DNA of 64,000 nucleotides from Candidatus Omnitrophota bacterium (lineage in GTDB: Bacteria > Omnitrophota > Gorgyraeia > Gygaellales > Profunditerraquicolaceae): NCBI GenBank assembly GCA_030650425.1, contig JAUSED010000008.1, positions 4,554 to 68,553 on the forward strand, given 5' to 3'. Below the pieces are notes generated by a model. That model saw only the letters and a list, made by a program, of their open reading frames with translations, did no database searches and was not told where the DNA came from. Shown here one piece after another: positions 610-48,659 of this stretch. Both the position numbers and the translations under genes were made by a program. Within the stretch, counting starts at the first letter, position 1. Every line of letters begins with the position of its first letter.

Positions 610-700
610 GTAGGGGAGGTTTAAACCTCCCCCCGAGCCCCAATCGCAGGGGACATTTTCCGTCAGGGCTATCAGGGATTCTTTAAAGGAAAGTGTCCCC
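610..700. repeat. composite REP cluster: GTAGGGGAGGTTTAAACCTCCCCCC palindrome + inverted pair GGGGACATTTTCC / GGAAAGTGTCCCC
   Basis: leuD/leuB intergenic; the same 26-bp palindrome recurs at 29825-29850; the GGGACA(C/T)TTTCC core recurs at >10 sites. Confidence 0.7.
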
Positions 701-726
701 TAGGATAATTATTTTGGAGAATACTC

Positions 727-1779: not shown

Positions 1780-1801
1780 CGTTGCCTATAACTAAACCTA
1801 C

Positions 1802-1903
1802 GGGACATTTTCCAACCCTTAGAGAAGGGGACACTTTCCGTCAAGGTTCTTAAGGAATCCTCAAAAGGAAAGTGTCCCCTTCCGGCTAAAAGGAAAGTGT
1901 CCC
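1802..1903. repeat. nested inverted REP pairs (GGGACATTTTCC, GGGGACACTTTCC / GGAAAGTGTCCCC, GGAAAGTGTCCC)
   Basis: leuB/asd intergenic; two left copies and two right copies in inverted orientation (BIME-like). Confidence 0.7.
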
Positions 1904-1930
1904 GGTTCGAGAAAGAAAAGGAAGTTTCTA

Positions 1931-10029: not shown

Positions 10030-10123
10030 GGACTGTTCCCGAAGGGGACTGTCCTCGAAGAACTAGTGTAGCCAGTAGGGACTGTCCCCGCTTTTTGGGG
10101 ACTGTCCCACGACAAGATAAGTA
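10026..10123. repeat. cluster of four GTAG-headed GGGACTGT(T)CCC palindromes + ACGACAAGATAAGTA tail (argF/argG junction)
   Basis: Copies at 10029-10040, 10044-10055, 10078-10089, 10097-10108; third copy followed by GCTTTTTG. Confidence 0.7.
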
Positions 10124-10144
10124 CTATTTGGGAGATAAGTGAAA

Positions 10145-11326: not shown

Positions 11327-11340
11327 CGCTAGTATAGCCA

Positions 11341-11389
11341 GTAGGGACTGTCCCCGTTTTTTGGGGACTGTCCCACGACAAGATAAGTA
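11341..11389. repeat. GTAG-GGGACTGTCCCC-GTTTTTT-GGGGACTGTCCC-ACGACAAGATAAGTA (argG/argH junction)
   Basis: Near-identical to 10075-10123. Confidence 0.7.
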
Positions 11390-11413
11390 TTGGCACCTAA
11401 ATACAGGAGAGCA

Positions 11414-14406: not shown

Positions 14407-14424
14407 GGGACCGTTTCTATTTTT
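14407..14424. repeat. solo left terminal repeat GGGACCGTTTCTATTTTT of the composite-element family
   Basis: No matching right end nearby. Confidence 0.55.
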
Positions 14425-17460: not shown

Positions 17461-18167
17461 TTAAACTCGGAATCGCTGGTGTCTGCGGCAAAATGGGGAG
17501 GCGGATTTTTGAGTTGGCGTCTTTTGATAAAGATTTTGAATTAACCTTTGGCTTAGAGAAAAAAGGTACTCCGGCAATAGGTAAAGATATAGGTAAGCTG
17601 AAGATATCCTCAAGTCTTGATGGATTATTTCTTGTTGATGTATTCGTGGATTTTACCATCCCGGAGGCAACCGAAATAAATCTTGATTATATCGCTAAAT
17701 ATAGAAAACCTCTTGTATTGGGCACAACAGGTTTAAGCGATGCGCAGATAAAAAAAGTCGAAGAGATTTCCCGGGTTGTTCCGGTTGTCTTTACTCCGAA
17801 TATGGCTATCGGGGTTAATGTTTTATTTTCGATCCTGCCGCAGATCGCTAAAAGGTTAGGCCCGGATTATAGTATTGAAATCGTCGAGGCGCACCATAAA
17901 TCCAAAAAAGACGCTCCTTCGGGAACAGCCAAGAAAATGATAGAGGTGTTGAGCGAGGCTACCGCCAGGCAAATACCCGCTCACTCGATCCGGCTGGGAG
18001 ATATTGTGGGAGACCATACAGTGATCTTCTGTGGAAACTCCGAGCGTATTGAAATCAAACATCAAGCGCATTCGCGGGATTTATTCGCTTTGGGCGCCTT
18101 AAGGGCGGCGAAATGGATTTTCGGCAAACCGGCCGGATTATATTCGATGCAGGACGTACTAAAATAG
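17457..18167 (+). CDS. dapB: 4-hydroxy-tetrahydrodipicolinate reductase
   Basis: 236 aa; GxxGxxG N-terminus, EAHHKSKKDAPSGTA motif; ATGA overlap with dapA. Confidence 0.88.
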   Translation: MIKLGIAGVCGKMGRRIFELASFDKDFELTFGLEKKGTPAIGKDIGKLKISSSLDGLFLVDVFVDFTIPEATEINLDYIAKYRKPLVLGTTGLSDAQIKKVEEISRVVPVVFTPNMAIGVNVLFSILPQIAKRLGPDYSIEIVEAHHKSKKDAPSGTAKKMIEVLSEATARQIPAHSIRLGDIVGDHTVIFCGNSERIEIKHQAHSRDLFALGALRAAKWIFGKPAGLYSMQDVLK

Positions 18168-18170
18168 GGG

Positions 18171-18213
18171 AAAATGGGGACTGTCCCCGTTTTCTGGGGA
18201 CTGTCCCCATTTT
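18171..18213. repeat. 43-bp near-perfect palindrome AAAATGGGGACTGTCCCC-GTTTTCT-GGGGACTGTCCCC-ATTTT (dapB/dapL junction)
   Basis: Two GGGGACTGTCCCC copies, each followed by a T-rich run. Confidence 0.7.
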
Positions 18214-18219
18214 AGTTAA

Positions 18220-19377
18220 ATGTTTAAACTATCCAAAAAATTACAGGCTTTACCGCCATATTTATTTTTGGAGATGGATAAAGCCAAAAGGCAGGCGCGC
18301 GCCGAAGGCCGCGATATTATTGATTTAGGTATAGGAGACCCGGATCAGCCGACACCTAAATATATCATCGAGGCATTATACCGCGCGGCGCTTGACCCGG
18401 CTAACCATCGTTATGCCTTAGATCAGGGTATGCCGGTTTTACGCCGGGCTATCGAAAGCTGGTATAAACGCAGGTTTAATGTCAGCCTTAATCCTGATTC
18501 CGAAATCCTTCCCTTAATTGGCTCAAAAGAGGGAATCGCGCATTTTCCGCTCGCCTTTTTAAACCCCGGTGATTATTCCTTGGTTCCTGATCCGTGCTAT
18601 CCTCCGTATAAAGGCGGAACGATCTTAGCCGGAGGTAAACCTTATCTTATGCCGTTACTTAAAGAAAATGCCTTCCTTCCCGATTTAAAGAAGATACCGT
18701 TTAACGCGCGCAAAAAAGCAAAAATAATTTTTATAAATTATCCCAATAATCCTACATCAGCGGTTGTTCAGCAATCTTTTTATCAAGAATTAATCGATTT
18801 CGCGCGTAAAAATAAGATCATTATTATTTCAGATCTGGCTTATTCCGAGATATATTTTGACGGATACAAGCCGCAAAGTATATTGGAATTAGATGGCGCG
18901 AGAGAGGTGGTAGTAGAATTCCATTCGCTCTCCAAAACTTTCAATATGACCGGTTGGCGGGTGGGCTGGGCAAGCGGGAATAAAAAATTAATCGCTGCTT
19001 TGGCTAAAGTTAAATCCAATATTGATTCCGGGATATTCTCGGCGGTGCAATTAGCCGGGATAGCCGCGCTTAGCGCTCCGCAAGAACATATTGAGCATAT
19101 GTGCACTCTTTATCAAGAAAGGCGTGATTTGTTGGTTAGCGGCCTAAATTCTTTAGGTTGGCAGGTGGATAGCCCCAAAGCGACATTTTATCTCTGGATA
19201 AAGCTGCCTAAGACATGCGGTTCGCTAAAATTCGCCGGGGATTTATTAGAGCAAGCGAATATTGTCGTTACTCCCGGAGTAGGCTTTGGTAAATACGGAG
19301 AAGGATATATTCGTATGGCGCTTACCGTGAATCGGGAACGTATCAGAGAGGCGCTCGATAGGCTCAAGAGTTTATGA
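18220..19377 (+). CDS. dapL: LL-diaminopimelate aminotransferase (class I PLP aminotransferase), DapL-type
   Basis: 385 aa; N-terminal LPPYLFLEMD...LGIGDPD resembles DapL; SLSKTF PLP-lysine motif; sits in the dap operon. Confidence 0.7.
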   Translation: MFKLSKKLQALPPYLFLEMDKAKRQARAEGRDIIDLGIGDPDQPTPKYIIEALYRAALDPANHRYALDQGMPVLRRAIESWYKRRFNVSLNPDSEILPLIGSKEGIAHFPLAFLNPGDYSLVPDPCYPPYKGGTILAGGKPYLMPLLKENAFLPDLKKIPFNARKKAKIIFINYPNNPTSAVVQQSFYQELIDFARKNKIIIISDLAYSEIYFDGYKPQSILELDGAREVVVEFHSLSKTFNMTGWRVGWASGNKKLIAALAKVKSNIDSGIFSAVQLAGIAALSAPQEHIEHMCTLYQERRDLLVSGLNSLGWQVDSPKATFYLWIKLPKTCGSLKFAGDLLEQANIVVTPGVGFGKYGEGYIRMALTVNRERIREALDRLKSL

Positions 19378-21777: not shown

Positions 21778-21915
21778 GGGACCGTTTCTATTTTTTCATA
21801 GTAGGGACACTTTTCTTTAGCCTGAAGGGGACACTTTCCTTTTGAGGCTTTCATTAGAGCCCTGACGGAAAGTGTCCCCTGAACGCCCTGAACGAGGAAA
21901 AATAGAAACGGTCCC
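21778..21915. repeat. composite element: TIR GGGACCGTTTCTATTTTTT ... AAAAATAGAAACGGTCCC enclosing GTAG-GGGACACTTTTC, GGGGACACTTTCC / GGAAAGTGTCCCC
   Basis: 138 bp; between the Lys-rich mini-protein gene and GT2. Confidence 0.75.
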
Positions 21916-23902: not shown

Positions 23903-26695
23903 ATGCAGAATGAATTTATTATTATCCGCGGGGCTAAAGAGCACAATTTAAAGAATATAAACCTTAAACTTCCCCGTAATAAACTGATCGTGGTCACCGG
24001 TTTATCCGGTTCAGGTAAATCCAGCCTCGCCTTTGATACAATTTACGCCGAAGGCCAACGCAGGTTTGTGGAAAGCCTCTCTAGTTATGCCCGGCAATTC
24101 TTAGAGAAATTACAGAAGCCGGATATAGAATACATATCCGGCTTATCTCCTGCTATTGCTATTGAGCAGAGGTCTGCCGGTTCCAATCCTCGTTCCACGG
24201 TGGCAACGCAAACCGAAATCTATGATTATTTAAGGATTCTTTTTAGCCGTATTGGCAGGGTATTTTGTTACCATTGCCAAGAGCCAATCCAGAGGCAGAG
24301 CGCGCAGGAAATTATCGAAAAGATCGTCTCTCTGCCGGCAGGGATAGATATCCAGATTTTGGCTCCGCTGGCGCGGGGAAAAAAGGGCGAACATAAGGAT
24401 ATATTATCCGGAATTCAGAAATCAGGATTTACGCGGGCGCGCGTTGACGGAAAGGTTTATGAATTACCCGTAAAATTAAAATTGGCTAAATATAAAATGC
24501 ATAACCTGGAAGTAGTGGTGGACAGGCTCACTCTTAGGGAAGGGATTAAAAATCGGCTTACGGATTCAGTCGAGACCGCGCTCAAGGTTGGCAAGGGCAT
24601 AGTTATTATTAGCCGGTTGAACCCGCCAACAGATTTAGTTTTTAGCGAACAATACGCCTGCGCTAAATGCGGGGTAAATTACGCGGAGGTTGAGCCGCGT
24701 ATTTTTTCTTTTAATTCTCCTTATGGAGCTTGTCCCGAATGTAATGGCTTGGGGACAAAAATTAAATTTGATTCCGATCTGGTTATCCCCGACAGGAGTA
24801 AATCGATAAACGAAGGCGCTATTGCCCCGTGGAAAAGAGGCGGGAGGGGTTATATCCTTTACTATCGCTGGCTGATCCGGGAATTGGCCGCGCGGCTGCG
24901 CTTTAATTTAGATACCCCGTTCAATAAATTATCCAAAGAAAATCAAAACGCGATCCTTTATGGCTCGAAAGAGTTTATTGGCAATAAACCTTTTGAAGGG
25001 GTAATCCCGCATCTGGAAAGATTATTCCGCGAATCAGATAGCGATTACCTGAAAGAAGAGATAACTAAGTTTATGACCAGTTCAGCTTGTCCGCTATGTA
25101 AAGGCGCCCGGCTCAAGAAGGAGAGCCTAGCGGTGAGGATTAGCGGGAAGAACATCTGGGAAGTTAGCCGGATGTCCATTAAAGAAGCGCGCCATTTTTT
25201 TAATCATCTTGAATTAAACGCCAAAGAAAAACTGATTGCTTATCAGGCGCTCAAGGAGATCATCCAAAAGTTAAGATTCTGTGTTGATGTCGGCCTCGAC
25301 TATCTTACCTTGGATAGAAAGAGCTCGACTCTTTCCGGAGGAGAGGCGCAGAGGATCCGTTTAGCTACTCAGGTTGGTTCAGGCCTGGTCGGAGTTTTAT
25401 ATGTCTTGGATGAGCCGAGTATCGGGCTGCATCAACGGGATAATGATAAGCTGCTGGCTACACTTAAGTCATTGAGGGATTTAGGGAATACTCTGCTGGT
25501 GGTTGAGCATGACGAATCAACCATTCTCAGCGCGGATTACGTGGTGGATTTAGGCCCGGGCGCAGGCAGGCATGGAGGCGAAGTGGTTTTTTCAGGAGTA
25601 AAAGAAGAGCTGTTAAAAGACAGGCATTCTTTGACCGCTAAATATTTACGCGGGGAATTAAAAATCGATTTACCGCAAAACAGGAGAAGCTGGCGTGACA
25701 AAAAGATGTTGGAGATAAAGGGAGCCAGCGAACATAATCTTAAGCATATCGATGCCAAATTTCCTTTAGGGATTTTTATCGGGGTTACCGGCGTATCCGG
25801 TTCAGGCAAATCCACTCTCGTTGATGAAATATTATTCCGGGCGCTCTCTCAAAGGCTTTATCGCGCGAAAGAAAAGCCCGGAGCCTTTAAAAAGATTACC
25901 GGTGTAGAATTTATTGATAAAGTGATTGTGGTGGATCAGTCGCCAATAGGCCGAACTCCCCGCTCTAACCCGGCTACTTATACGGGAGTGTTTAATTATA
26001 TCCGCGATATCTTCGCCCGGCTTCCTGAGTCGCGCGGCCGGGGTTATCAACCCGGAAGGTTCTCCTTTAATGTCAAAGGCGGCCGCTGCGAGGCATGTAT
26101 GGGCGATGGGATAAAAAAGATCGAGATGCATTTTTTGCCCGATGTCTATGTTAAATGCGATATCTGCAAGGGCTTAAGGTTTAACGAGGCAACTTTAGCC
26201 ATAAAATATAAAGGCAAGTCTATCGCCGACGTACTGGAGATGACCGTAGAAGAGGCCCGGGAGGCCTTTAATAATATCCCGGCTATAAAAAATACGCTTG
26301 CTTACTTATTCGATGTTGGTTTGGGATATATCCAACTCGGCCAATCCGCGACTACCTTATCCGGAGGAGAAGCGCAGAGGATTAAGCTTTCCAGCGAATT
26401 GAGCAAGCGCGCGACCGGCAACACACTTTACATCCTTGATGAGCCGACCACGGGCTTGCATTTTGCCGATGTGGCTAAATTAATCAATGTCTTGCAGAGG
26501 TTAGTCGATAAGGGGAATACGGTGATTGTTATTGAACATAATTTAGAGGTGATTAAAAGCGCGGATTATATCATTGATTTGGGACCCGAAGGCGGGGATA
26601 AAGGTGGAGAGTTGGTTGCCTCAGGCAGCCCGGAAGAAATTATCCGGAATCAAGACTCCTACACAGGCCAGTTTCTTAAAAAAATATTGCTATGA
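23903..26695 (+). CDS. uvrA: excinuclease ABC subunit A
   Basis: 930 aa; two ABC ATPase modules (GLSGSGKSSLAFDT, GVSGSGKSTLV) and zinc-finger Cys clusters. Confidence 0.93.
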   Translation: MQNEFIIIRGAKEHNLKNINLKLPRNKLIVVTGLSGSGKSSLAFDTIYAEGQRRFVESLSSYARQFLEKLQKPDIEYISGLSPAIAIEQRSAGSNPRSTVATQTEIYDYLRILFSRIGRVFCYHCQEPIQRQSAQEIIEKIVSLPAGIDIQILAPLARGKKGEHKDILSGIQKSGFTRARVDGKVYELPVKLKLAKYKMHNLEVVVDRLTLREGIKNRLTDSVETALKVGKGIVIISRLNPPTDLVFSEQYACAKCGVNYAEVEPRIFSFNSPYGACPECNGLGTKIKFDSDLVIPDRSKSINEGAIAPWKRGGRGYILYYRWLIRELAARLRFNLDTPFNKLSKENQNAILYGSKEFIGNKPFEGVIPHLERLFRESDSDYLKEEITKFMTSSACPLCKGARLKKESLAVRISGKNIWEVSRMSIKEARHFFNHLELNAKEKLIAYQALKEIIQKLRFCVDVGLDYLTLDRKSSTLSGGEAQRIRLATQVGSGLVGVLYVLDEPSIGLHQRDNDKLLATLKSLRDLGNTLLVVEHDESTILSADYVVDLGPGAGRHGGEVVFSGVKEELLKDRHSLTAKYLRGELKIDLPQNRRSWRDKKMLEIKGASEHNLKHIDAKFPLGIFIGVTGVSGSGKSTLVDEILFRALSQRLYRAKEKPGAFKKITGVEFIDKVIVVDQSPIGRTPRSNPATYTGVFNYIRDIFARLPESRGRGYQPGRFSFNVKGGRCEACMGDGIKKIEMHFLPDVYVKCDICKGLRFNEATLAIKYKGKSIADVLEMTVEEAREAFNNIPAIKNTLAYLFDVGLGYIQLGQSATTLSGGEAQRIKLSSELSKRATGNTLYILDEPTTGLHFADVAKLINVLQRLVDKGNTVIVIEHNLEVIKSADYIIDLGPEGGDKGGELVASGSPEEIIRNQDSYTGQFLKKILL

Positions 26696-29097
26696 AAATA
26701 AGGGACCGTTTCTATTTTTCCCTGGTAGGAGACATTTTCCTTTGCGTCAGAAAGGGACATTTTCCTTTTGAAGTTCTAGTTAGAGCCCTGACGGAAAGTG
26801 TCCCTTTCTGCAAAGGTTGGAAAGTGTCCCCTACTGCGCCTAGAAACGGTCCCATTTTTTTTCTATTCGTTATTACGTTGGTATTGCTGCCTCTCTTTAG
26901 CCTATCCGCCGATACTTCAGCAGGTAAGGAAGCGGAAACATTCTTTATGGCCCAAAAGGCCTTTGAGGATGGTTTTTATGACGCGAGCCTCGGTTTTCTG
27001 GAGCGTTTCCTGAAAAATTATCCGGATTCCGCTAAGGCCATAGAAGCGAATCTGCTGGTCGGTGAATGTTATTTCCATCAGCATAAGTTTACTGCCGCTT
27101 TAGCCAAGTTCGAAGAGCTTTTAAAAGATCCTCAATCCAAAAGTATTAGAGATGTCCTTTACTATTGGATGGCTGAAGTTAATTTCAAAGGTGATAATTT
27201 TACTCAGGCTTCTTTATATTACAAGAATATTATTCAGGAATTTCCTGTTTCTGCTTACGCCCCCGCGGCGTATTATTCTTTAGGCTGGTGTTTATTTCAG
27301 GAACATAGATTTAAGGACGCGATCGGTTATTTTCAGGCCTTGATTAAGAAGTACCCTCAAGAACCCCAAGCTAAAGATGCCGGTTTTAAAATTATCGAAT
27401 GCCTGTATAACCTAAAAGATTACGCCCAGCTAAAAGAAAGAATAAATTCAAACATCGATGTCTTTCCCAAAGATGCCTTGCGCGTGGCCTACCTTTATTT
27501 TTATTTAGGCGAAGCTGATTATTATCTGGGAGATTTTGACGGGGCGCTCGCTGCCTATGCTAAAGTTTTAACGAACAGCCCCGACGCTAAAATGCAGGCG
27601 CTGACTAAACTGGATTTAGGCTGGGCATACCTTAAATTAAAACGCTACCAAGAGGCCGAAGATGTTTTCTTAGGGATAAAACAGAGTAATTTGGAGAAGG
27701 GAAGCCGGGATATCCTGTTATTGGGCAGGGCTATTGCTTCAATGGAGACTAACCGGATACATCAGGCTAAAAAACTATATGAAGAATTGTCAGTTCAGGC
27801 CAGCGACCCCTTGATTTCAATCCAAGGTTTGATCGGCAGGGCGGATGCCCTTTATAATTTGGCTGACTACGCGGAAGCCTCTAAGGCTTACCAAGAGGCA
27901 TTGGCCAAAGTAAATCTAAAAGGAGCCTATCGTCAGATAATCGATAAATTATATTATAATTTAGGCTGGTCTTTGCTGAAACAAGGGTATATCCTTGAGG
28001 CTATTACAGCGTTTCAAAGGGTGATTGATTTAAGCAGCGACGCTACATTTAGAGCAGGCGCTCTTTGTCAGATAGGAGATGCCTATCAGGAGGGGGCGGA
28101 TTATAAAAAAGCCGAAGAGGCATATAAATTATTATTGAAGGAATACCCGGGTTCTCATTATAACGATTATACATTATATCAATTGGGTTCAGTCTGTTTA
28201 AAAGAAGCAAAAATCAATGAAGCAATTTTAAACCTGATCCTTTTAGAAAAGAAATTTTCTTCATCCAAATTTTTGGATGATGCCGCGTATACCCTTGGTT
28301 TAGCTTATTTCAATAAGCAGGATTATAATTTGGCGAAGGAGACCCTTAAAAAATTTCAGGACATATTTAAGAATAGCGATTTAAGGCCAAAGGCGCTTTA
28401 TCTTTTGGGAAATTGCCTCTATAGCTTGGGAGATTATCCTTCGGCTATACAGGTTTTCAAAGAAATCCCGAGGTTTACCGGTATTGAAGCTGAATTGGAA
28501 GAGAAAGCTGAGTACGGGGTGGCGGACGCGCTTTATCAGATGGGGCAGGAGGAAGAGGCGCTTGCGCGATTTAAGGCTTTACGCTCTAAATATCCCGGCT
28601 CAAGCCTTGCCCCGGATATCCTCTGGTGGTTGGGGAGCTATTATTATCAGCATAATGAAGTGGAGCTGGCGCAGAGGTATTTTTTGTCGCTTATACAGGA
28701 TTTCCCTAAGAGTAATTTATTAGCCGACGCTTATTACGGCTTAGGCCTTACCTTAATGGATGGGCCAAAGGCACAGGAGGCTCTGGATAATTTTAGAAAG
28801 GCGCTTGCTTTAAATAATCCCGAGATTAAGCCTAAGGCAGCGGTAGCGATGGCTGAAATCGAAGAGGCGAAGGGGAACATTGATCAGGCAGCTAAAGATT
28901 ATCTGGAAGCGATTAAACTATCCGGACAGGATAATAAACTTACCGCGACAGTTCTTTTAAGGTTAGGTAGAATCTATGAAGATAAGAATAATATTCAGGA
29001 AGCCTTAAAGGTTTATTCCAAGATATTAGATATGAATATAGCGGAGTCCAAATACGCCGAAGAGCGGATTGCCAGCCTTAAGCCCAGCGTTAAATAA
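26692..29097 (+). CDS. large tetratricopeptide-repeat protein, signal/anchor after residue ~55; start uncertain
   Basis: ATG 26692 overlaps uvrA stop; first ~54 codons run through composite repeat 26702-26853; hydrophobic IFFLFVITLVLLPLFSLSA then many TPR units. Confidence 0.6.
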   Translation: MKIRDRFYFSLVGDIFLCVRKGHFPFEVLVRALTESVPFCKGWKVSPTAPRNGPIFFLFVITLVLLPLFSLSADTSAGKEAETFFMAQKAFEDGFYDASLGFLERFLKNYPDSAKAIEANLLVGECYFHQHKFTAALAKFEELLKDPQSKSIRDVLYYWMAEVNFKGDNFTQASLYYKNIIQEFPVSAYAPAAYYSLGWCLFQEHRFKDAIGYFQALIKKYPQEPQAKDAGFKIIECLYNLKDYAQLKERINSNIDVFPKDALRVAYLYFYLGEADYYLGDFDGALAAYAKVLTNSPDAKMQALTKLDLGWAYLKLKRYQEAEDVFLGIKQSNLEKGSRDILLLGRAIASMETNRIHQAKKLYEELSVQASDPLISIQGLIGRADALYNLADYAEASKAYQEALAKVNLKGAYRQIIDKLYYNLGWSLLKQGYILEAITAFQRVIDLSSDATFRAGALCQIGDAYQEGADYKKAEEAYKLLLKEYPGSHYNDYTLYQLGSVCLKEAKINEAILNLILLEKKFSSSKFLDDAAYTLGLAYFNKQDYNLAKETLKKFQDIFKNSDLRPKALYLLGNCLYSLGDYPSAIQVFKEIPRFTGIEAELEEKAEYGVADALYQMGQEEEALARFKALRSKYPGSSLAPDILWWLGSYYYQHNEVELAQRYFLSLIQDFPKSNLLADAYYGLGLTLMDGPKAQEALDNFRKALALNNPEIKPKAAVAMAEIEEAKGNIDQAAKDYLEAIKLSGQDNKLTATVLLRLGRIYEDKNNIQEALKVYSKILDMNIAESKYAEERIASLKPSVK
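26702..26853. repeat. composite element with TIR GGGACCGTTTCTATTTTT ... (CT)AGAAACGGTCCC enclosing four GGGACAxTTTCC-type cores
   Basis: Immediately after the uvrA stop; overlaps the 5' part of the TPR-protein ORF. Confidence 0.75.
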
Positions 29098-29801: not shown

Positions 29802-29880
29802 GGGACCGTTTCTATTTTTCTAAAGTAGGGGAGGTTTAAACCTCCCCTACCGTCTTAAAAATAGAAACGGTCCCTTTTTT
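29802..29880. repeat. composite element: TIR GGGACCGTTTCTATTTTT / AAAAATAGAAACGGTCCC enclosing the 26-bp perfect palindrome GTAGGGGAGGTTTAAACCTCCCCTAC; followed by TTTTTT
   Basis: Hairpin plus T-run could act as an intrinsic terminator after the PilX-like gene. Confidence 0.75.
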
Positions 29881-34361: not shown

Positions 34362-34369
34362 ATGTTCAA

Positions 34370-37476: not shown

Positions 37477-37574
37477 GGGACCGTTTCTATTTTTCCCTAT
37501 TAGGGGACACTTTCCAACAGTCAGTAAACGCGTGTAGGAAAGTGTCCCCTGAACGAAAAAATAGAAACGGTCCC
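37477..37574. repeat. composite element (TIRs as above) enclosing ATTAG-GGGACACTTTCC ... GTAG-GAAAGTGTCCCC with ACGCGT-centred spacer
   Basis: Inner 66 bp nearly identical to 39010-39075 and 45766-45830. Confidence 0.75.
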
Positions 37575-37647: not shown

Positions 37648-37696
37648 AGTCATTGCGAGGAGCCCCTGCGTTACGTCGGGGCGACGCGGCAATCTC
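37648..37696. repeat. AGTCATTGCGAG-GAGCCCCTGCGTTACGTCGGGGCGACGCGGCAATCTC hairpin element in the pilin 5' leader
   Basis: Same GTCATTGCGAG head as 3749 and 16034. Confidence 0.6.
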
Positions 37697-37709
37697 AAAA
37701 GGAGGAGAG

Positions 37710-38109: not shown

Positions 38110-38508
38110 ATGTTTAAGAATATAAGAAATATTGAAAATGGTTTTACGTTAATAGAATTAATAATTGTAGTGGCAATTGTGCTTGCGTTGTCAAGTATTG
38201 CTATAGTTAAGTATGGGAATATTACTGAAAAAGCGCGTTCTGCCGAAGCCTACGCGGTATTGGCTGATATTGCTGCTTCGGAGGTCAGTTATTCAATAGA
38301 ACATAATGACGCTTACACTGGAACTTGGTCAGATTTAGATAGGTATAATGCTGCGCCGGCAAGCGAGAATTTTACCTTTTTTCTTGCCGACGCGGTTAGC
38401 AGCGGGTATGTCAATGCCGCGCATATCACAGGCAGGGGAACAGTGGATTATTATATGTGCATAAGGGGAGGAGAGCGGGGGACCATCGTTCCGACAAATT
38501 GCCCATGA
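38110..38508 (+). CDS. type IV pilin
   Basis: MFKNIRNIENG/FTLIELIIVVAIVLALSSIAIV. Confidence 0.8.
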   Translation: MFKNIRNIENGFTLIELIIVVAIVLALSSIAIVKYGNITEKARSAEAYAVLADIAASEVSYSIEHNDAYTGTWSDLDRYNAAPASENFTFFLADAVSSGYVNAAHITGRGTVDYYMCIRGGERGTIVPTNCP

Positions 38509-38522
38509 GAAATGTAAAAAAA

Positions 38523-38581
38523 GGGGACGGTTCTATTTTTCCGGCGTTAGACTCAAGAAAAATAGAACCGTCCCCTTTTTT
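38523..38581. repeat. variant composite element GGGGACGGTTCTATTTTT ... AAAAATAGAACCGTCCCC + TTTTTT between pilin 2 and pilin 3
   Basis: Variant TIR (CGG instead of CCG) shared with the intragenic copy at 44280-44332. Confidence 0.7.
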
Positions 38582-38585
38582 CCAG

Positions 38586-38984
38586 TTGGCGCGGGGGTTT
38601 ACTCTCATCGAGCTTATCTTGGTGGTTACGGTGATTATTACGCTGGCTTTAATTGCTATTCCCAACTATAATAAGTCAAAAGACAGGGCGATAGAAAAGG
38701 AAGGTATTTCTAACGTCAGGCTGATAGCCGCGGCTGAGAGAATATACAAGATGGAAAGCAGCGCTAATGTTTATGTTGCTTGTGCTAATGCCACTACTTG
38801 TAATACAGCGCTTAATTTGAATTTGAACGCGACTAACTGGAGTTACAAAGTTGAGCTTGCTTCAGGTTCAGGGGTCGCGACCATAACCGCTACTGGATCT
38901 GCTGTCTCTGGTTGTAGCTATACCTTGACGAGCGCCAATTTTGATGCAGAACCAACAGTACCAGCAGGCTCAAGCTGCCCTTAG
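38586..38984 (+). CDS. type IV pilin; start ambiguous (TTG 38586, or ATG 38505 reading through a repeat element)
   Basis: ARG/FTLIELILVVTVIITLALIAIP; ATG 38505 overlaps the previous stop (ATGA) and would add 27 repeat-encoded residues. Confidence 0.7.
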   Translation: MARGFTLIELILVVTVIITLALIAIPNYNKSKDRAIEKEGISNVRLIAAAERIYKMESSANVYVACANATTCNTALNLNLNATNWSYKVELASGSGVATITATGSAVSGCSYTLTSANFDAEPTVPAGSSCP

Positions 38985-38991
38985 GAAAAAA

Positions 38992-39093
38992 GGGACCGTT
39001 TCTATTTTTCCCTGTTAGGGGACATTTTCCAACAGCCAGTAAACGCGTGTAGGAAAGTGTCCCCTTAGACTCTAGAAAAATAGAAACGGTCCC
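38992..39093. repeat. composite element (TIR GGGACCGTTTCTATTTTT / AAAAATAGAAACGGTCCC) with inner REP pair
   Basis: Between pilin 3 and pilin 4. Confidence 0.75.
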
Positions 39094-40092: not shown

Positions 40093-40097
40093 AACCT

Positions 40098-40111
40098 GGG
40101 GGACGCTCCCC
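40098..40111. repeat. GGGGGACGCTCCCC palindrome upstream of the RAYT gene
   Basis: Inverted partner at 40839-40851. Confidence 0.6.
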
Positions 40112-40209
40112 AAGGTGCCAGCCTACTTCTAATTTCAGGTATTTTCTTAAAAAAATTTCGTTAGATTTGCTGCCTTCATGCGTCTATTAATAGTGAGGAG
40201 GTGGTAAAT

Positions 40210-40800
40210 ATGTCAAGGAGACAAAGGTTAGTTTTTGAGAGGTCATACTACCATGTTTTTACCAGGGGAAATGACCGCAAGCGGATTTTTAGAAAGGAAG
40301 CAGATTATCAGGTTTTTCTTTCGATAATCAGGAAGTACTTGGAGAAATTCCAGATCTCCATAACAAACTATTGCCTTATGCCTAATCATTTGCATTTGCT
40401 TATTTTTATTGAGACAGGTGGAGAATTGTCTAAGTTTATGAAAGCCGTCTTGCAGGTATATGCCAATTACCATAGGAAAGAATATGGCTCAACCGGGTTT
40501 CTCTATCAAAATAGGTTCAAAAGTTTATTGATCAAGGAGGAGAGTTATTTAATCGAGTGCGCTAGATACATAGAAAGAAATCCATTAAGAGCAAAATTAG
40601 TAAGCGATATTTTTGCTTGGCCATGGAGCAGCCTTTCTTACTATGCAAAAGGAATTAAAGATGGTATAATTACGAAAGTAAATCCGATTTTTGAGGCTTT
40701 GGCAGATACACCCGTGGAGAGAAGAGAAGCCTATATCAAGTATGTCTTACAGGAAAGAGCATATGAACAAATTCTTGATAAAGAATTTGACATAAAATAA
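40210..40800 (+). CDS. IS200-like Y1 transposase of the REP-associated tyrosine transposase (RAYT) type
   Basis: ATG 40210 after GAGGAGGTGG; HuH motif NHLHLL and catalytic Tyr region ARYIERNP; flanked by inverted GGGGACGCTCCCC / GGGGAGCGTCCCC at 40098-40111 and 40839-40851. Confidence 0.8.
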   Translation: MSRRQRLVFERSYYHVFTRGNDRKRIFRKEADYQVFLSIIRKYLEKFQISITNYCLMPNHLHLLIFIETGGELSKFMKAVLQVYANYHRKEYGSTGFLYQNRFKSLLIKEESYLIECARYIERNPLRAKLVSDIFAWPWSSLSYYAKGIKDGIITKVNPIFEALADTPVERREAYIKYVLQERAYEQILDKEFDIK

Positions 40801-40823
40801 CTTAAAATAGTCGAAAATACGTT

Positions 40824-40851
40824 GTAGAGTGTCCCTTTGGGGAGCGTCCCC
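40824..40851. repeat. GTAG-AGTGTCCC-TTTG-GGGAGCGTCCCC downstream of the RAYT gene
   Basis: Inverted orientation relative to 40098-40111. Confidence 0.6.
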
Positions 40852-40916
40852 AAGCTCAAGCTTTACAGATTGATAATTGTATTGACAAAGTGTAAATTAT
40901 ACTATATACTTTTATC

Positions 40917-42180: not shown

Positions 42181-43671
42181 ATGATAAGAGATAAACGTTT
42201 CGCCCTCGCAATGGCTGGGGTTAGTATTTGTATTTTTTGTTTTGGGTTTTGCCATTTATTATGCGCCGAAAATATTAAAGAACCCTGCGTTGCCGGCACA
42301 TTTTATCCCGCGAGCCCACAAGAGCTTTCTCAGATGGTTGATAACTATCTGGAAGAGGCTAACCCTGAAAAACCAAGCGGTGAAATCTTCGGCTTAATCT
42401 CTCCGCACGCCGGCTACGGTTATTCAGGCAAGGTTGCCGCCTTCGGCTATAAACTTATTAAAAATCAGCCGTATAAAACAGTAGTGATTTTGGGGACAAG
42501 CCACCATTATCCTTTTAGCGGAGCTTCAGTTTATCCCGATGGAGTATTTAAAACTCCGCTTGGCGCGATTACCATAGACGATAAATTTACCCAAAAACTG
42601 CTTAATCGGAATAAGGACGTATACTTTGCTCCGGAGGCATTTAGGGAAGAGCATAGCGTGGAAGTCCAGCTGCCATTCTTACAAAAAACACTTAATCACT
42701 TCAAGATTGTGCCGATAGTTATCGGCGATTGTTCTTTGTCGGCCTGCCAGTCGCTCGCGTCCTTGCTTAAAGAGGCGATTGGTGAGCGCAGAGATGTTTT
42801 GGTGGTTGTTTCTACCGATATGTATCATGGTTACGATTATGATGAGGCCAATAAAATCGACGTGCTTACCCTCGCCGCTATCAAAAATATGGATGCCGAA
42901 GCCCTTTATTGGGCCTTGCGCGACGAAAAGATGCAGCTCTGCGGCGGATTTGGCGTGGTGACGGCATTGATTTTAGCCAAAGGCCTGGGCCATGATCAAA
43001 TAAGCGTATTGAAACATACAAATTCCGCAGAAGTTACCGGTAACCAGAAGAAGGGGATCTGGACCGTCGGATATGCAAGTTGTGTGATTGACCAGCCAAA
43101 GGGAGAAAAGGCTATGTTAAATAAAGCTCAGAGAAAAAGATTGCTTGAAATCGCGCGCAGCGCAATCGAAACTTATCTAAAAACCGGTAAGAAGCCGCAG
43201 TTGAACGAGACCGATCCGTTGCTTTTAAAGACGATGGGGGCTTTTGTTACCCTGAAGAAACACACAGAGCTGCGTGGTTGCATTGGAAATCTCGTAGGTG
43301 AAAAGGCTTTATATTCTACGGTGAGCGATATGGCGGTTGAAGCTGCGACAGAGGATTACCGTTTTCGTTCTCACCCGGTAGAATTATCCGAACTTAAAGA
43401 TATCGAAATCGAAATTTCTGTTTTATCTCCGATGGTAAAAATTGATAATCCTGATCAAATCAAGCTTGGAACACACGGTGTTTTGATACGTAACGGCCCT
43501 AGGAGCGGAGTATTTCTTCCTCAGGTAGCCACTGAAACAGGCTGGTCAAAAGATGAATTTATGTCTAATCTGTGCATCCACAAAGCTGGCTTAGATGCAG
43601 ACGCTTGGAAAGACAAGTCTACCGAAATCTATATCTTTACTGCCGAAGTATTTTCAGAGAAAGACAAATGA
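42181..43671 (+). CDS. MEMO1-family (AmmeMemoRadiSam protein B-like) domain fused to AMMECR1 domain, with N-terminal signal/TM segment
   Basis: 496 aa; hydrophobic/Cys-rich N-terminus; MEMO motifs [13 protein letters not shown] and [10 protein letters not shown]; AMMECR1 signature [18 protein letters not shown]. Confidence 0.75.
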
Positions 43672-43688
43672 AAAATAGAAACGGTCCC
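43672..43688. repeat. solo right terminal repeat AAAAATAGAAACGGTCCC
   Basis: Immediately after the MEMO-AMMECR1 stop codon. Confidence 0.55.
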
Positions 43689-43709
43689 AAGTTTCCCCAG
43701 GTATTTAAA

Positions 43710-44495
43710 ATGCATAGATTCTTTTGTACAACTTCAGATATCACAAGTACCGAAATAATCATTAAGGATAAAGAACAGGCGCACCATATAAGAGATGTCC
43801 TCAGGCTTAAGCCGGGTAAACAGGTGGAGGTATTTGATGAAAAGGGAAATGAATATAGCTGCGAGATTCGCGAAATAAAAGATAAAATCTATCTTGAGAT
43901 TAAAAATAAAATTGCCGCCGATAAAATAAGCCAGAGAATAAAACTAACTGTAGCTTGCGCCCTGCCCAAGAAGTCTAAGCTAGACGATATCATTGATAAA
44001 CTTGTCCAGTTGGGAGTACACAGGATCATCCCGTTAAAAACAGAACGCGTAATCGTTAAGTTAGATAAATATAAAGAAGCAGGCCGGCTTGAGCGCTGGA
44101 GAAAAATCGCGCTTAGCGCCGCCAAACAAAGTAAGAGAAATGACTTACCTGTAATTGAGCCGGTTCAGGATTTACAAAAGGTTATCGCGCGATCGCAAGA
44201 ATTTGATTTAAAGCTTATACCGTATTTAGGAGGAGAGCGTAAAAATCTAAAGGATGTTTTAGATAAATTCTTAAAAAAAGGGGACGGTTCTATTTTTTCG
44301 GCATCAGACTCTAGAAAAATAGAACCGTCCCCTTGTTTTTTAATTCTTATCGGCCCGGAAGGAGATTTCTCTGAAGCAGAGGTAAAGCTAGCCGTAGCCG
44401 CGGGATTTATTCCGGTAACCCTTGGTGATTTAGTTTTACGCGTGGATACCGCGGCCATCGCGGCGGCCAGCTTCATTACTATGTACACCTCGTAG
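43710..44495 (+). CDS. rsmE: 16S rRNA (uracil1498-N3)-methyltransferase RsmE with an in-frame repeat insertion
   Basis: ATG 43710 (MHRFF...); C-terminal SPOUT motif LILIGPEGDFSEAE...LGDLVLRVDTAAIAA; residues GDGSIFSASDSRKIEPSP are encoded by a repeat element at 44280-44332. Confidence 0.8.
   Translation: MHRFFCTTSDITSTEIIIKDKEQAHHIRDVLRLKPGKQVEVFDEKGNEYSCEIREIKDKIYLEIKNKIAADKISQRIKLTVACALPKKSKLDDIIDKLVQLGVHRIIPLKTERVIVKLDKYKEAGRLERWRKIALSAAKQSKRNDLPVIEPVQDLQKVIARSQEFDLKLIPYLGGERKNLKDVLDKFLKKGDGSIFSASDSRKIEPSPCFLILIGPEGDFSEAEVKLAVAAGFIPVTLGDLVLRVDTAAIAAASFITMYTS
44280..44332. repeat. variant composite element GGGGACGGTTCTATTTTTT ... AAAAATAGAACCGTCCCC inside rsmE, in frame
   Basis: Encodes GDGSIFSASDSRKIEPSP just before the GPEGD SPOUT motif. 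Confidence 0.7.
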
Positions 44496-45747: not shown

Positions 45748-45845
45748 GGGACCGTTTCTATTTTCCCTAGTAGGGGACACTTTCCAACAGCCAGTAAACG
45801 CGTGTAGGAAAGTGTCCCCTGAGCGAAAAAAATAGAAACGGTCCC
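45748..45845. repeat. composite element (TIRs GGGACCGTTTCTATTTT / AAAAAAATAGAAACGGTCCC) with GTAG-GGGGACACTTTCC ... GTAG-GAAAGTGTCCCC
   Basis: After the MtaB-like gene. Confidence 0.75.
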
Positions 45846-46500: not shown

Positions 46501-46504
46501 CCGG

Positions 46505-46571
46505 TCATTGCGGGTAATTAAGTTGTAGCGGACATTTAAATGTCCGCTACAACTTCGCCGTTCGCAATGAC
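46505..46571. repeat. GTCATTGCGGG ... GTTGTAGCGGACATTTAAATGTCCGCTACAAC ... CGTTCGCAATGAC nested palindrome
   Basis: Inner palindrome recurs (GTAGCGGACACTTAAGTGTCCGCTAC) inside the downstream gene at 48223-48252. Confidence 0.7.
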
Positions 46572-46585
46572 GATAATTTACTATA

Positions 46586-48550
46586 GTGAATAAATCTAAA
46601 TTAATTTTATTTATAGGTATCCTTTTCATTCTCGCCTTATCCTGCGCGGCCGCCTATTCCAATTCCGTACACAATCCTTTTATCTGGGACGACGATGCCT
46701 TAGTGGTTAAGAATCCGCTGCTAAGCAACTGGTCGAATCTGCCGAAGGTATTCACCAGCGACCTGTATCCCGGGGTAACTGCCGGCTCAAACTTTTATCG
46801 TCCGCTGCAGACCATATCTTATATCTGGGATTATCATTTTTGGCAGCTGGATCCGTTTGGCTACCACCTTTCCAATATCATCCTGCAGATTTTAGTTTCT
46901 TTGCTCGTTTTCTTACTTACCCGGATTATGCTCAAGGATACAAAAATCGCTTTGGCCGCGGCTCTGTTATTTGCCTTAAATCCGCTGCATACGGAAGCGG
47001 TAACCTATATTTCCGGAAGGGCGGAGATGCTTATGGGATTATTTCTACTTGCTTCCCTAATTTTATTTATTAAGGGGCATCGAGTTTTTTCTCTTTTGAG
47101 CTTTATCTGCGGCTTGCTCTCTAAGGAGTTATCCGTAGTTTTTCCGTTAGTTATTTTAGCATATTTATTTTACTATAAGAGAGAGAAGCTAAAGAAGGCA
47201 CGCTACCTCCTAAAATCAGTTTTACCATTTTTGATTATAGATTTGATCTATTTAATCTTGAGGTCCGGTTTATTGCATTTTGCGACTATCAGGCCGCCGG
47301 CATTGACTAAATACCCCTTCATTTTAAGAGTGATAGTCTTTCCTAAAGTAATGCTGACCTATCTAAAGTTATTTATCCTTCCGGTCGATTTGCATATGAG
47401 CCGGACATTGGCGCGTCCGGTGAATTTTTTAAGCCTATTCTGGAGTTGTTTTTTTCTCGGGATGATCTTTGTGTTTTGCGCCTATATTTTAAAAAACTAT
47501 AAGCAAAGAAAGACAGCCGCGTTTATGCTCTGTTGGTTCTTGATTTTTCTTCTTCCTCAATCCGGGATCCTGCCGATTAACGCCTTTATCGCCGAGCACT
47601 TTATCTATCTGTCATCGATCAGCGTTTTTATCTTACTGGCTTATTTATTGCGTAAATATTTAAGGAGGGGACTTTTTATTTTTTCCGTCATCGGGCTTGC
47701 GCTATTCTACGCTATGCTTACTTATACGCGTAACTTTGACTGGAGCGATCCTTTAGTATTTTATTCCAAAATAATCAAATATTCTCCGGATAGCTTTCAG
47801 GCGCATAACAATTTAGGGTTGCAATACGAATACCGGCATGACTTGAGGAAAGCCATCTTGGAATATAAGCGGGCATTGGAAATAGAGCCTAAGCTGATTG
47901 AGGCGCGTTCTAATCTGGCTAATGCCTATTTTAAACTGGGTAAATTTAAGGACGCGCTTTCGGAGTACGCCCAAGTAGAGAAGAGTGCTCTGCGGGAAAA
48001 GGCCGGAGAGCTGCAGAACAATATCGGTTGTATTTATGAAGTTGAAGGATTGTTGGATGAAGCCTTAGATAGGTATAGGCTCGCTTTACGTTTAGACCCT
48101 GCCTTGAACTTTACGCATTTCAATATCGCCAGGATTTACGCGGCTAAGGCTAAGTTTGATTTGGCCGCCCAAGAGGTAATAAAATCGCTTCCTGAGCTAA
48201 GTCTTACTGATTTTTATAGCAGCCGTAGCGGACACTTAAGTGTCCGCTACGGAGATAAGGATAGATATGCTCAGGTAATTAGTGCCTACGTGAAATCGTC
48301 AAAAGCATTTCAATCGGGCGTAATATTCTATAATGATTTAGGCGTGAAGTTCGCATCTGAAAACCTGTTGGAGGGAGCAATTGCCGCGTTCAAAAGGGTG
48401 ATTGAGCTGGATCCGCTTTACGCTGACGCGCATTTTAATCTGGGGCTTGCCTTTTGGAAAAAAGGCTTAAAAAAAGAGGCGATTTTTGAGTTCAAGAGAG
48501 CGCTTAAAATAAATCCTAATCACTTGAATGCCAAAGGGTTCTTAAGATAA
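46586..48550 (+). CDS. polytopic membrane protein with C-terminal TPR repeats (PMT_2/TMTC-like glycosyltransferase candidate)
   Basis: 654 aa; GTG start; ~11 TM helices in first ~400 aa then TPR units; contains in-frame 30-bp palindrome at 48223-48252. Confidence 0.65.
   Translation: MNKSKLILFIGILFILALSCAAAYSNSVHNPFIWDDDALVVKNPLLSNWSNLPKVFTSDLYPGVTAGSNFYRPLQTISYIWDYHFWQLDPFGYHLSNIILQILVSLLVFLLTRIMLKDTKIALAAALLFALNPLHTEAVTYISGRAEMLMGLFLLASLILFIKGHRVFSLLSFICGLLSKELSVVFPLVILAYLFYYKREKLKKARYLLKSVLPFLIIDLIYLILRSGLLHFATIRPPALTKYPFILRVIVFPKVMLTYLKLFILPVDLHMSRTLARPVNFLSLFWSCFFLGMIFVFCAYILKNYKQRKTAAFMLCWFLIFLLPQSGILPINAFIAEHFIYLSSISVFILLAYLLRKYLRRGLFIFSVIGLALFYAMLTYTRNFDWSDPLVFYSKIIKYSPDSFQAHNNLGLQYEYRHDLRKAILEYKRALEIEPKLIEARSNLANAYFKLGKFKDALSEYAQVEKSALREKAGELQNNIGCIYEVEGLLDEALDRYRLALRLDPALNFTHFNIARIYAAKAKFDLAAQEVIKSLPELSLTDFYSSRSGHLSVRYGDKDRYAQVISAYVKSSKAFQSGVIFYNDLGVKFASENLLEGAIAAFKRVIELDPLYADAHFNLGLAFWKKGLKKEAIFEFKRALKINPNHLNAKGFLR
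48223..48252. repeat. perfect 30-bp palindrome CCGTAGCGGACACTTAAGTGTCCGCTACGG inside the TPR-membrane gene, in frame
   Basis: Encodes SRSGHLSVRYG. Confidence 0.7.
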
Positions 48551-48659
48551 TCCACCCACGAGATGTAGGGGCACGGCATGCCGCGCCCCTACATCGCAGT
48601 TGTACATGGGTAACAAAAAGTAATTGCTAAAAGCAGCCTTTATGTTAGAATAAATTAAC

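Follow-up and report, generated by a model that had tools for sequence, protein, structure and literature searches.

A RAYT-class Y1 HUH endonuclease gene between hairpin-bearing inverted repeats, and the GTAG-tagged palindromes around it, in an Omnitrophota genome

The Y1 gene and its terminal inverted repeats

The stretch of DNA analysed here, called the window below, comprises 64,000 nt of a Candidatus Omnitrophota bacterium (GCA_030650425.1, JAUSED010000008.1 positions 4,554 to 68,553, forward strand), and the element in question is a cassette of ~760 bp in which a gene for a Y1 HUH endonuclease of the REP-associated tyrosine transposase class (RAYT, also TnpA_REP) lies between two terminal inverted repeats (TIRs). 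Systems made of repetitive extragenic palindromes (REPs) and RAYTs offer the clearest case of a transposase that has been domesticated along with its miniature elements, and to our knowledge nearly all that has been learned about them comes from Proteobacteria and Cyanobacteria. The Omnitrophota are an uncultured phylum, related to the PVC group (Planctomycetes, Verrucomicrobia, Chlamydiae) and consisting mostly of tiny cells. A preliminary description of the window had placed at 40098-40851 a RAYT-type gene flanked by inverted palindromes, and had implied that its enzyme processes the GTAG-headed repeats found in the same DNA. Homologous loci, designated by L-numbers (L002 and so on), were fetched by exact-protein look-up and a metagenome scan, and single-copy and repeat counts for the source genome cover the 64-kb window.

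The gene (40210..40800, + strand) was defined by its open reading frame (ORF), Pfam and NCBIfam matches, alignment and an AlphaFold2 model. Translation can start at GTG 40201 or ATG 40210 and stops at 40800, giving 196 aa counted from the ATG; the product is NCBI MDO8662300.1, encoded on a 288-kb contig of a metagenome-assembled genome (MAG). The two motifs originally pointed out, HuH (NHLHLL) and Tyr (YIERNP), are indeed present, as N59-H60-L61-H62 within MPNHLHLL and as the catalytic Y120, followed by a WSS tail at 139-141, and the protein matches Pfam Y1_Tnp with E=2.8e-17 (63.4 bits). The database holds 531 relatives, the best 120 of which are nearly all 195-197 aa long and 51-100% identical, and the named proteins among these 120 belong to Candidatus Omnitrophota/Omnitrophica. 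An alignment of 30 family members has a mean column identity of 67% with H60, H62 and Y120 invariant, which indicates that the enzyme is under purifying selection. The ORF encodes a genuine Y1 HUH enzyme that belongs to the RAYT/TnpA_REP class and has intact catalytic residues.

The assignment to RAYTs rather than to ordinary IS200 transposases, already advanced by the preliminary description, is sustained by several comparisons. When the protein was run against REP-transposase profiles, as that description had proposed, REP_Tyr_transpos ranked first in NCBIfam, with 74.1 bits under a cutoff of 80, whereas the IS200 model reached 27.3 bits (cutoff 55). A profile of the family matched the E. 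coli TnpA_REP (4ER8) with E=3.5e-4 over residues 13-143, covering both catalytic motifs, while the transposases of IS608 and ISDra2 were matched at ~0.01 and in the N-terminal half only. In the same line, 4ER8 was the best Foldseek match of the AlphaFold2 model (predicted local distance difference test score, pLDDT, 87), with E=2.9e-7, TMt 0.74 and 159 aligned columns that include the C-terminal part of the model, compared to ~1e-4 over 105-130 columns for IS200-family structures. The motifs of the family are NH[LI]H, [FY]Q, YIERNP and a W-S-S tail. In the motif table of Quentin et al. 2018, class 2, on the RAYT side, carries Y---NP and class 1, that of IS200, carries Y---Q (PMC6006769), so that the Y---NP signature puts the protein in class 2 and not in class 1. 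Within class 2, the motifs would lie roughly nearest to subclass 2.1 (FQ, YIELNP, SS), with a partial fit to Table 1 of the same work. No helix-turn-helix (HTH) family was found in the Pfam search of the 196-aa protein, and the 64-kb window contains neither a tnpB neighbour nor a second Y1 gene. The view that this is not an insertion sequence (IS)-type unit was thus borne out, also by the synteny described below, and the gene should not be named IS200 transposase in annotations.

The flanking repeats are equally well defined. An exact GGGGACGCTCCCC is present at 40099-40111 (+) and an exact reverse complement of it at 40839-40851, in agreement with the preliminary description; these two are the only exact copies within the window, and 6 matches are found with <=2 mismatches vs 0.97 expected. 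The inverted pair extends to 40 nt with 75% complementarity (40096-40135 / 40815-40854), carrying CTAC in the left arm and GTAG in the right one, and both arms were delimited by inverted-repeat search, homologous loci and folding. The left TIR (40096..40135, +) holds the mini-hairpin GGGGA-CGC-TCCCC (40099-40111), the box AAGGTGCCAG and CTAC at 40127-40130, and the right TIR (40815..40854, +) holds GTAG at 40823-40826, the box AGTGTCCC and the mini-hairpin GGGGA-GCG-TCCCC (40839-40851). The architecture of an arm is a 5-bp mini-hairpin with a 3-nt loop (GGGGA-CGY-TCCCC) plus an inner G(K)G(M)CAC box; the stem lengthens in the window to 9 bp with one mismatch, and as single-stranded DNA (ssDNA) the arms fold into small hairpins of -6 to -7.6 kcal/mol (left arm -7.6).

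A matching TIR of 25-40 nt, with the consensus GGGGGACGYTCCCCAARGKRCCACCCT, surrounds most of the ~30 homologous loci with enough flank, and among the ~30 examined no convincing inverted repeat was found at L009 and L024. The left arm keeps a distance of ~100-150 nt upstream of the ATG and the right arm one of 2-40 nt past the stop codon. Distant clades keep this layout with both ends co-varying, as GGGGTCCGTTTCTTAAGGAGCCAC in L030, GCAGMCGTCCTAYTTRGGTACACCCTAC in L029 and L032, and AAAGGGTCCWGGACCCTTT in L035 and L036. A conserved block, GTTAGATTT-N13-GCGTCTATTA, which resembles a promoter and may act as one, is situated between the left arm and the ATG and followed by an AGGAGG ribosome-binding site (40161..40209, +); the alignment of 20 upstream regions gives it as GTTAGATTT-N13-CGTCTATTA, and the same block precedes the paralogous Y1 gene in L140. 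Intrinsic termination was also considered for the TIR hairpins: a T-run is absent on the relevant strand save for a weak minus-strand match at 40114-40095, and a terminator was rejected as the main role of the TIR because the repeat is kept as an inverted pair in every genomic context. A RAYT-class cassette bounded by TIRs is therefore well supported, and across Omnitrophota the hairpin-TIR cassette around this RAYT-class gene is sharply conserved.

L002 (81% identity) and L004 (69%) have the cassette at the position that it takes in the window, after the last pseudopilin gene of an operon resembling those for type II secretion or type IV pili and before tRNA-Ala(CGC) and the Memo/AMMECR1 gene. 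At 52-56% identity it is found in four unrelated contexts with its repeats retained. A gene present once in 64 kb, inherited vertically over short distances and relocated over long ones fits a domesticated or nearly domesticated RAYT-type gene and not an active IS.

Dispersed palindromes of the window

Repeats were tallied by family-based counts and their association with GTAG by a test on G-run cores; generic scans that ranked the tetranucleotide 5' of perfect stems were dropped because AT-rich or chance hairpins dominated them and imperfect or GTAG-internal stems were overlooked. Family-based searches yield ~52 arms at 23 loci, together ~1.65 kb (2.6% of the window). The palindromic repeat loci are all situated before 48.6 kb, nearly all of them directly downstream of stop codons, and the tightly packed 48.6-64 kb has none. 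With ~600 REPs in E. coli K-12 (PMC8266576), roughly 8 per 64 kb, the density is high, as the preliminary description had stressed, but it is within reach of REP-rich pseudomonads.

At least four sequence families had been announced, and the count now comprises F1-F7 plus F8 and F9. F1 consists of 9 units of GTAG-GGACTGTCCC, F2 of 2 copies of GTAGGGGAGGTTTAAACCTCCCC(TAC), F3 of 19 arms of GGGGACAYTTTCC paired into hairpins, F4 of 17 arms of GGGACCGTTTCTATTTTT and a variant, F5 of 2 copies of GTAGCGGACAYTTAARTGTCCGCTAC, F6 of 1 copy of GTAGGGGCRCGGCATGCCGYGCCCCTAC, and F7 of the 2 copies of the RAYT gene's own repeat. F4 builds a hairpin of GGGACCGTTTCTATTTT, a loop of 5-50 nt and the reverse complement, framed by A-runs and T-runs. 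F8 (GTCATTGCGAG...GCAATCTC; 3750-3822, 16034-16075, 37649-37700, 34414-34424, 46504-46571) forms hairpins or encloses other palindromes, and F9 comprises GGTGACAGTCACC palindromes, single or as inverted pairs after genes (19777-19807, 29111-29123, 34375-34405). An unbiased count gave GGGGAC/GTCCCC, GGGACACT and GGGACCGT as the most over-represented words of the window.

Many of these elements are nested, F4 arms surrounding F3 hairpins or the F2 palindrome and F8 arms surrounding F5, and the composites fold as ssDNA at -27 to -36 kcal/mol (z ~-9 to -10). At 37477..37574 (+) F4 arms (GGGACCGTTTCTATTTTT / reverse complement) enclose an F3 hairpin (TTAG-GGGACACTTTCC ... GTAG-GGAAAGTGTCCCC), with a fold of -36.1 kcal/mol and z=-10.2. 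Other composites of F4 around F3, all on the + strand, are found between pseudopilin genes (38992..39093), at 45748..45845 with a GTAG head at 45770, at 21778..21915 with three F3 arms and GTAG at 21801, and at 26702..26861 with four F3 arms, a truncated right F4 arm and GTAG at 26725 (+) and 26834 (-). F4 arms around the double-foot palindrome GTAGGGGAGGTTTAAACCTCCCCTAC (F2, 29825-29850) occupy 29802..29874 (+), and F8 arms (GTCATTGCG / CGCAATGAC) around the double-foot GTAGCGGACATTTAAATGTCCGCTAC (F5) occupy 46504..46571 (+; fold -26.8 kcal/mol). Simpler arrangements, likewise on the + strand, comprise an F2 palindrome with just one GTAG foot (610-632) and an F3 hairpin behind it (648-703) at 610..703, a four-arm F3 cluster at 1801..1904, an F1 cluster of GTAG-GGACTGTCCC units at 10014..10124 (GTAG 10026 and 10075; fold -12.8 kcal/mol), an F1 doublet at 11329..11390 (GTAG at 11341) with a partial copy at 42-83, an F1-like doublet of GGGGACTGTCCCC palindromes without GTAG at 18164..18222, and the F6 double-foot GTAG palindrome GATGTAGGGGCACGGCATGCCGCGCCCCTACATC at 48562..48595. 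Solo F4 arms lie at 14407..14424 (+) and 43671-43688 (-).

The GTAG tag itself is less frequent than had been claimed. Instead of more than 40 palindromic cores directly preceded by GTAG, the window shows 20 heads (15 on +, 5 on -) on 16 cores, so that the first figure was ~2.5-fold too high. The enrichment behind it is genuine: GTA precedes 19/308 G-run cores vs a background of 1.2% (binomial p=9e-9), and because the tag also recurs in five sequence-unrelated families it is not a product of chance. Tagged families are F1, F2, F3 (in part), F5 and F6, of which F2, F5 and F6 are double-foot palindromes (GTAG...CTAC); F4, second to F3 with its 17 arms, F8 and F9 are never headed by GTAG. Most F3 arms have no GTAG head, and some untagged arms begin with TTAG, CTAG or ATAG instead. 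Among asymmetric GTAG-headed units, 11/12 have the GTAG on the + strand. Being short, repeated, mostly extragenic and GTAG-tagged, F1, F2, F3 (in part), F5 and F6 are members of the GTAG REP superfamily.

Comparison with close relatives indicates that the repeats are insertions. The window is collinear with L002 from 29.7 to 50.7 kb, and in pairwise alignments five elements (34367-34413, 37477-37574, 45748-45845, 46504-46571 and 48562-48595) have no counterpart at the orthologous intergenic sites. The syntenic 20 kb of L002 contains almost none of the window's repeats; F1, F2, F3, F5 and F6 are absent from 20 kb of L002 and L004, and also from the flanks of the close relatives L010 and L012-L016. 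Moreover, two genes hold in-frame repeat insertions. In rsmE (16S rRNA methyltransferase gene; ORF end 44495) an F4-variant hairpin at 44280..44332 (+) adds ~8-14 residues (KKGDGSIFSASDSRKIEPSP) and is common to L002 (14487-14531) and absent from L004; the same DNA lies between genes at 38523..38575 (+), as a hairpin GGGGACGGTTCTATTTTT ... AAAAATAGAACCGTCCCC with an empty loop. In the gene with TPR repeats (46586-48550) an F5 double-foot GTAG palindrome, CCGTAGCGGACACTTAAGTGTCCGCTACGG (48223..48252, +), adds ~10 residues vs the L002 orthologue. An exact insertion target was sought in the filled-vs-empty alignments with L002, whose boundaries are too diverged to define one. The chromosome of this lineage is colonised by at least seven families of palindromic elements, intergenic and occasionally intragenic in frame.

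The distribution beyond this genome was followed in a cross-species sample of at least 112 loci (801 kb), mostly from Omnitrophota MAGs, that were matched with the F4 17-mer and none of which overlaps the window; all figures for the 801 kb are among the matches listed, at loci chosen for holding F4. The F4 sequence is kept across many Omnitrophota MAGs and some labelled Planctomycetales (L090-L201), with at least 68 arm pairs of conserved stems and variable loops of 5-50 nt and at least 73 solo arms, and no transposase was found next to the F4 hairpins of these 801 kb. The sample also holds at least 40 palindromes of 26 nt with the form GTAG-N6-TTTAAA-N6-CTAC (L104, L105, L120, L132, L146, L149, L153, L168 and others), represented in the window at 29825 and 46525. 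Their stems come in at least eight variants (GGGAGG, GGTGGG, GGCAGG, GGGGCG, CGGAGG, TGGGGG, CTGACG, CGGACA), pairing being kept by changes on both sides. Five of the 40 listed, and with the window copy at 29825 6/41, sit inside F4 loops, which make up roughly 0.2% of the 801 kb; because F4 was the criterion by which these loci were chosen, the enrichment can be taken as no more than indicative. F3 was encountered in no genome other than that of the window.

The repeats also bear on annotation, as they inflate several ORF starts of the window. The mechanical ORFs 26692..29097, 38457..38984 and 43572..44495 read through repeats at their 5' ends (26692-26861, 38457-38600 and 43572-43750), and their true starts are probably downstream. 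Short arrays of a CAGAAGT heptamer occur at 2462-2513 (an inverted pair of arrays), 15420-15457 and 15818-15850, and all long gene-like ORFs across positions 1-64000 are on the + strand. Around the cassette, an ATPase gene (AAA_14 + DUF4143, 40917-42080) with a strong promoter-like site (TTGACA-17-TATACT, 40882-40910) stands between the right TIR and tRNA-Ala; it is a 1.24-kb lineage-specific insertion, since the TIR adjoins the tRNA directly in L002 and L004. Relative to L002 (10736-11877), where a radical-SAM gene separates tRNA-Ala from the Memo/AMMECR1 gene, the window lacks this gene at 42181-42268, and relative to L002 (13270-13968) it lacks at 43664-43753 a DsbD_2 gene, whose site is occupied by a solo F4 arm.

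The enzyme and the GTAG palindromes

On sequence and model comparisons, the protein is likely to be a functional class-2 Y1 HUH endonuclease/ligase of the RAYT kind, acting on ssDNA and forming the core of a TIR-bounded cassette of the type called TIRtron or TIRYT, separate from the GTAG REPs. The cassette would be a single-copy unit, passed on vertically among close Omnitrophota relatives and found elsewhere at deeper divergence with its repeats intact. By analogy with the E. coli TnpA_REP, the enzyme might bind the TIR hairpin on ssDNA, for instance on the lagging-strand template, and might cut and rejoin beside it through Tyr120 and a metal held by the HuH motif. The gene itself would rarely move, because its ends are inverted and one strand does not offer two equivalent ends. 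The five GTAG-tagged families, often nested in the loops of the longer F4 hairpins, would form a separate layer, and any part of this enzyme in spreading them or F3 is conjectural.

Several points weigh against this view. The score of 74.1 bits for REP_Tyr_transpos just misses the curated cutoff of 80, which makes the profile match a near miss; the TIR mini-hairpins are only marginally more stable than shuffled sequences (z -1.6 to -2.6); and the single-copy status of the cassette rests on 64 kb. Moreover, the TIR hairpin reads GGGGACGC, not a perfect GGGGWSAS, the motif shared by many TIRtrons, and the protein has neither the C-terminal HTH nor the ~238-aa length typical of subclass 2.1.

If the GTAG palindromes are mobilised, the agent may possibly be a different RAYT encoded elsewhere in the genome, perhaps of a subclass 2.4-like type, while the window gene serves its own TIR-type sites or another task on ssDNA. 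Double-foot REPs have been described for RAYT subclass 2.4 (PMC6006769), genomes can hold several RAYTs, each with its own REP family, and other Y1 clades of Omnitrophota (L029-L033, L140) each bear a different TIR. In this regard, the TIR of L030 and L031, GGG(G)TCCGTTTC, is similar to the F4 arm GGGACCGTTTC, a hint that another RAYT clade could be the source of F4 or act on it; the Y1 clade of these two loci (L030, 2879 and 3611; L031) is 48-49% identical to the window protein. The window, however, has no second Y1 gene, and the 801 kb of F4-bearing loci yielded one, of a different clade (L140), whose ends differ; at none of the 112 loci was a Y1 gene seen with F4 arms or GTAG palindromes on its flanks. 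The odds of a second, unseen RAYT are about the same as those of the GTAG REPs being mobilised by the gene described here.

That latter alternative, implied by the preliminary description, is a classic REPtron in which this RAYT creates and spreads the GTAG families and the flanking hairpins are two diverged members of them. It is possible, though less likely than not. Known RAYT substrates are GTAG REPs (PMC8266576, PMC3733652), the gene is the only Y1 gene of the window and is flanked by inverted hairpin repeats, and both TIR arms bear GTAG/CTAC at a distance of 7 nt from the extended stem. Furthermore, the right arm GTAG-AGTGTCCC is similar to the right F3 arm GTAG-GAAAGTGTCCCC, the inner box GGGACACT is the most over-represented 8-mer of the window (15 copies vs 0.5 expected), and a GGG(G)AC start is common to F1, F3, F4 and the TIR. 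Nevertheless, the flanking repeat is not a dispersed family: besides the two copies at the gene, the TIR 13-mer has two solo copies in the 801 kb, and of the dispersed repeats F3 alone shares the inner box GGGACAC(T) with the TIR. The GTAG/CTAC arrangement on both flanks is restricted to the window, L010 and L012 retaining just the left CTAC and L002, L004 and L006-L009 showing neither, so a flanking hairpin with 5' GT[AG]G at its foot is not a family trait among the relatives' loci. L002 keeps gene and TIR in a syntenic 20 kb free of F1, F2, F3, F5 and F6, the flanks of L010 and L012-L016 are equally free of them, and F2 and F4 occur in MAGs that show no member of the gene family in the 801 kb. 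On the enzyme side, the residues that contact GTAG in the E. coli TnpA_REP (W94, Q95, E100, H101 and R104) have Y/F, Q, S, L and K as their counterparts, so that W94, E100, H101 and R104 appear, with moderate confidence in an alignment at 19% identity, not to be conserved. The link between enzyme and GTAG repeats is therefore unproven, because the TIR is not dispersed, GTAG is not conserved at the flanks and most contact residues differ.

A broader proposal unites both layers: a RAYT-like enzyme kept vertically throughout the Omnitrophota, with its hairpin-TIR cassette as the ancestral seed of lineage-specific repeat bursts and with GTAG palindromes that prefer the ssDNA loops of long F4 hairpins. 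F3 would be tied to the TIR here because it has the GGGACAC box of the latter. We consider this proposal unlikely; if true, hairpin-in-hairpin nesting would be the direct footprint of loop-targeted HUH transposition in ultra-small, host-dependent bacteria.

It is very unlikely that the dispersed palindromes are locally evolved terminators or regulatory hairpins, immobile and independent of any transposase. Most do lie 2-15 nt past the stop codons of co-directional genes, and the A-runs and T-runs that frame F4 recall a bidirectional terminator, but the palindromes reappear nearly unchanged at many unrelated loci and across many MAGs, are missing from orthologous L002 sites, stand in frame within rsmE and the TPR gene, are nested one in another and share the GTAG tag among five unrelated families. 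Once inserted, the repeats may still act as terminators. An active insertion sequence of IS200/IS605 type whose ends only look inverted is the least probable of all, for although the TIR-gene-TIR unit occurs in at least five genomic contexts, with an extra solo TIR 2 kb upstream in L007 and with the hairpin-containing ends typical of that family, the gene is single-copy in the 64 kb and syntenic among close species, has no tnpB neighbour, lies between ends that are inverted and not direct as in IS608, belongs to protein clusters found on 1-9 contigs each, and encodes a 196-aa protein with a RAYT-like C-terminal part, a Y---NP instead of a Y---Q motif, and L or I after the N of its HuH motif instead of DH[VI]H.

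The locus offers a natural contrast: one lineage carries ~2.6% of nested palindromic repeats in 64 kb, and an 81%-identical relative, with the TIRs conserved and the locus syntenic, has almost none at the same sites. This contrast bears on whether TIRYT enzymes spread repeats or not, on whether GTAG tags need a GTAG-reading RAYT, and on whether hairpin loops serve as insertion targets.

Relation to TIRtrons, REPtrons and insertion sequences

Di Nocera et al. 2013 gave the names TIRtrons and TIRYTs to RAYT-like genes with long TIRs in place of GTAG REPs; many of these TIRs share a GGGGWSAS motif, and dispersed TIR copies exist in some systems only (PMC3733652). Quentin et al. 2018 assigned most TIRtrons to subclass 2.1, for which no REPs were found (PMC6006769), and the group 1 RAYTs of Bertels (PMC5581495) count with TIRtrons and subclass 2.1 among the systems closest to the present one. 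The layout of the Omnitrophota cassette matches a TIRtron/TIRYT, roughly of subclass 2.1, better than a classic GTAG REPtron. Both have a RAYT-like Y1 gene between long TIRs rather than GTAG REPs, a fixed distance between TIR and gene, and a TIR of low copy number or not dispersed. The G-rich GGGG-W-S motif is found as GGGGACGC in the window hairpin, one mismatch from GGGGWSAS, as the (A)GGGACAC inner box, and as an exact GGGGACAC in L013; the protein has FQ/YQ instead of WQ, YIE-NP and the SS tail. On the other hand, subclass 2.1 has a median length of 238 aa with a Bac_DnaA_C or HTH_23/28 domain, compared to 196 aa and no detectable C-terminal HTH here, and its motifs (NHVH or NH[YF]H; W[EQ] or FQ; YIELNP or Y[IV]HLNP; SS) are approached by NH[LI]H, [FY]Q, YIERNP and W-S-S. 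Further differences are the self-complementary mini-hairpin in each TIR arm and the synteny strongly kept within the clade, in a phylum unsampled by the three studies (PMC3733652, PMC6006769, PMC5581495).

The E. coli REPtron (TnpA_REP = YafM/RayT, 4ER8; Y/Z REPs; subclass 2.2, group 2) is the best match in profile and fold. It shares with the Omnitrophota gene the HuH motif and one Tyr, Y---NP, the single copy (within 64 kb for the Omnitrophota gene) and the bracketing by inverted hairpin repeats, in a host genome rich in GTAG-bearing extragenic palindromes. Its flanks, however, are GTAG REPs dispersed ~600 times, in place of a private TIR, and its GTAG-contact residues are not conserved in a protein of 19% identity. 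With IS200/IS605 elements (IS608, ISDra2) the cassette has in common the Y1 HUH fold and hairpin-containing ends, which those elements recognise as ssDNA; it differs from them in the Y motif and in length (196 vs ~150 aa), in having no tnpB and no multiple copies within the 64 kb, in its inverted rather than direct ends, and in being a chromosomal, syntenic gene.

As for the dispersed repeats, F1, F2, F3, F5 and F6 resemble the GTAG REPs, REPINs, BIMEs and double-foot REPs (PMC3733652, PMC3116915, PMC6006769) as palindromes of 20-50 nt with a 5' GTAG that frequently form inverted pairs and are located downstream of genes or, at times, in frame within them; the double-foot likeness concerns F2, F5 and F6. 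They differ from that superfamily in that no REP-flanked RAYT was found for them in the window and the 801 kb, and in that they are often nested in the loops of untagged F4 hairpins common to many Omnitrophota. GTAG REPs had earlier been reported in eight phyla, the PVC group included (PMC3733652), so that the kind of system is known and the phylum new. The least described aspect is the nested architecture itself, with GTAG palindromes lodged in the loops of F4 hairpins.

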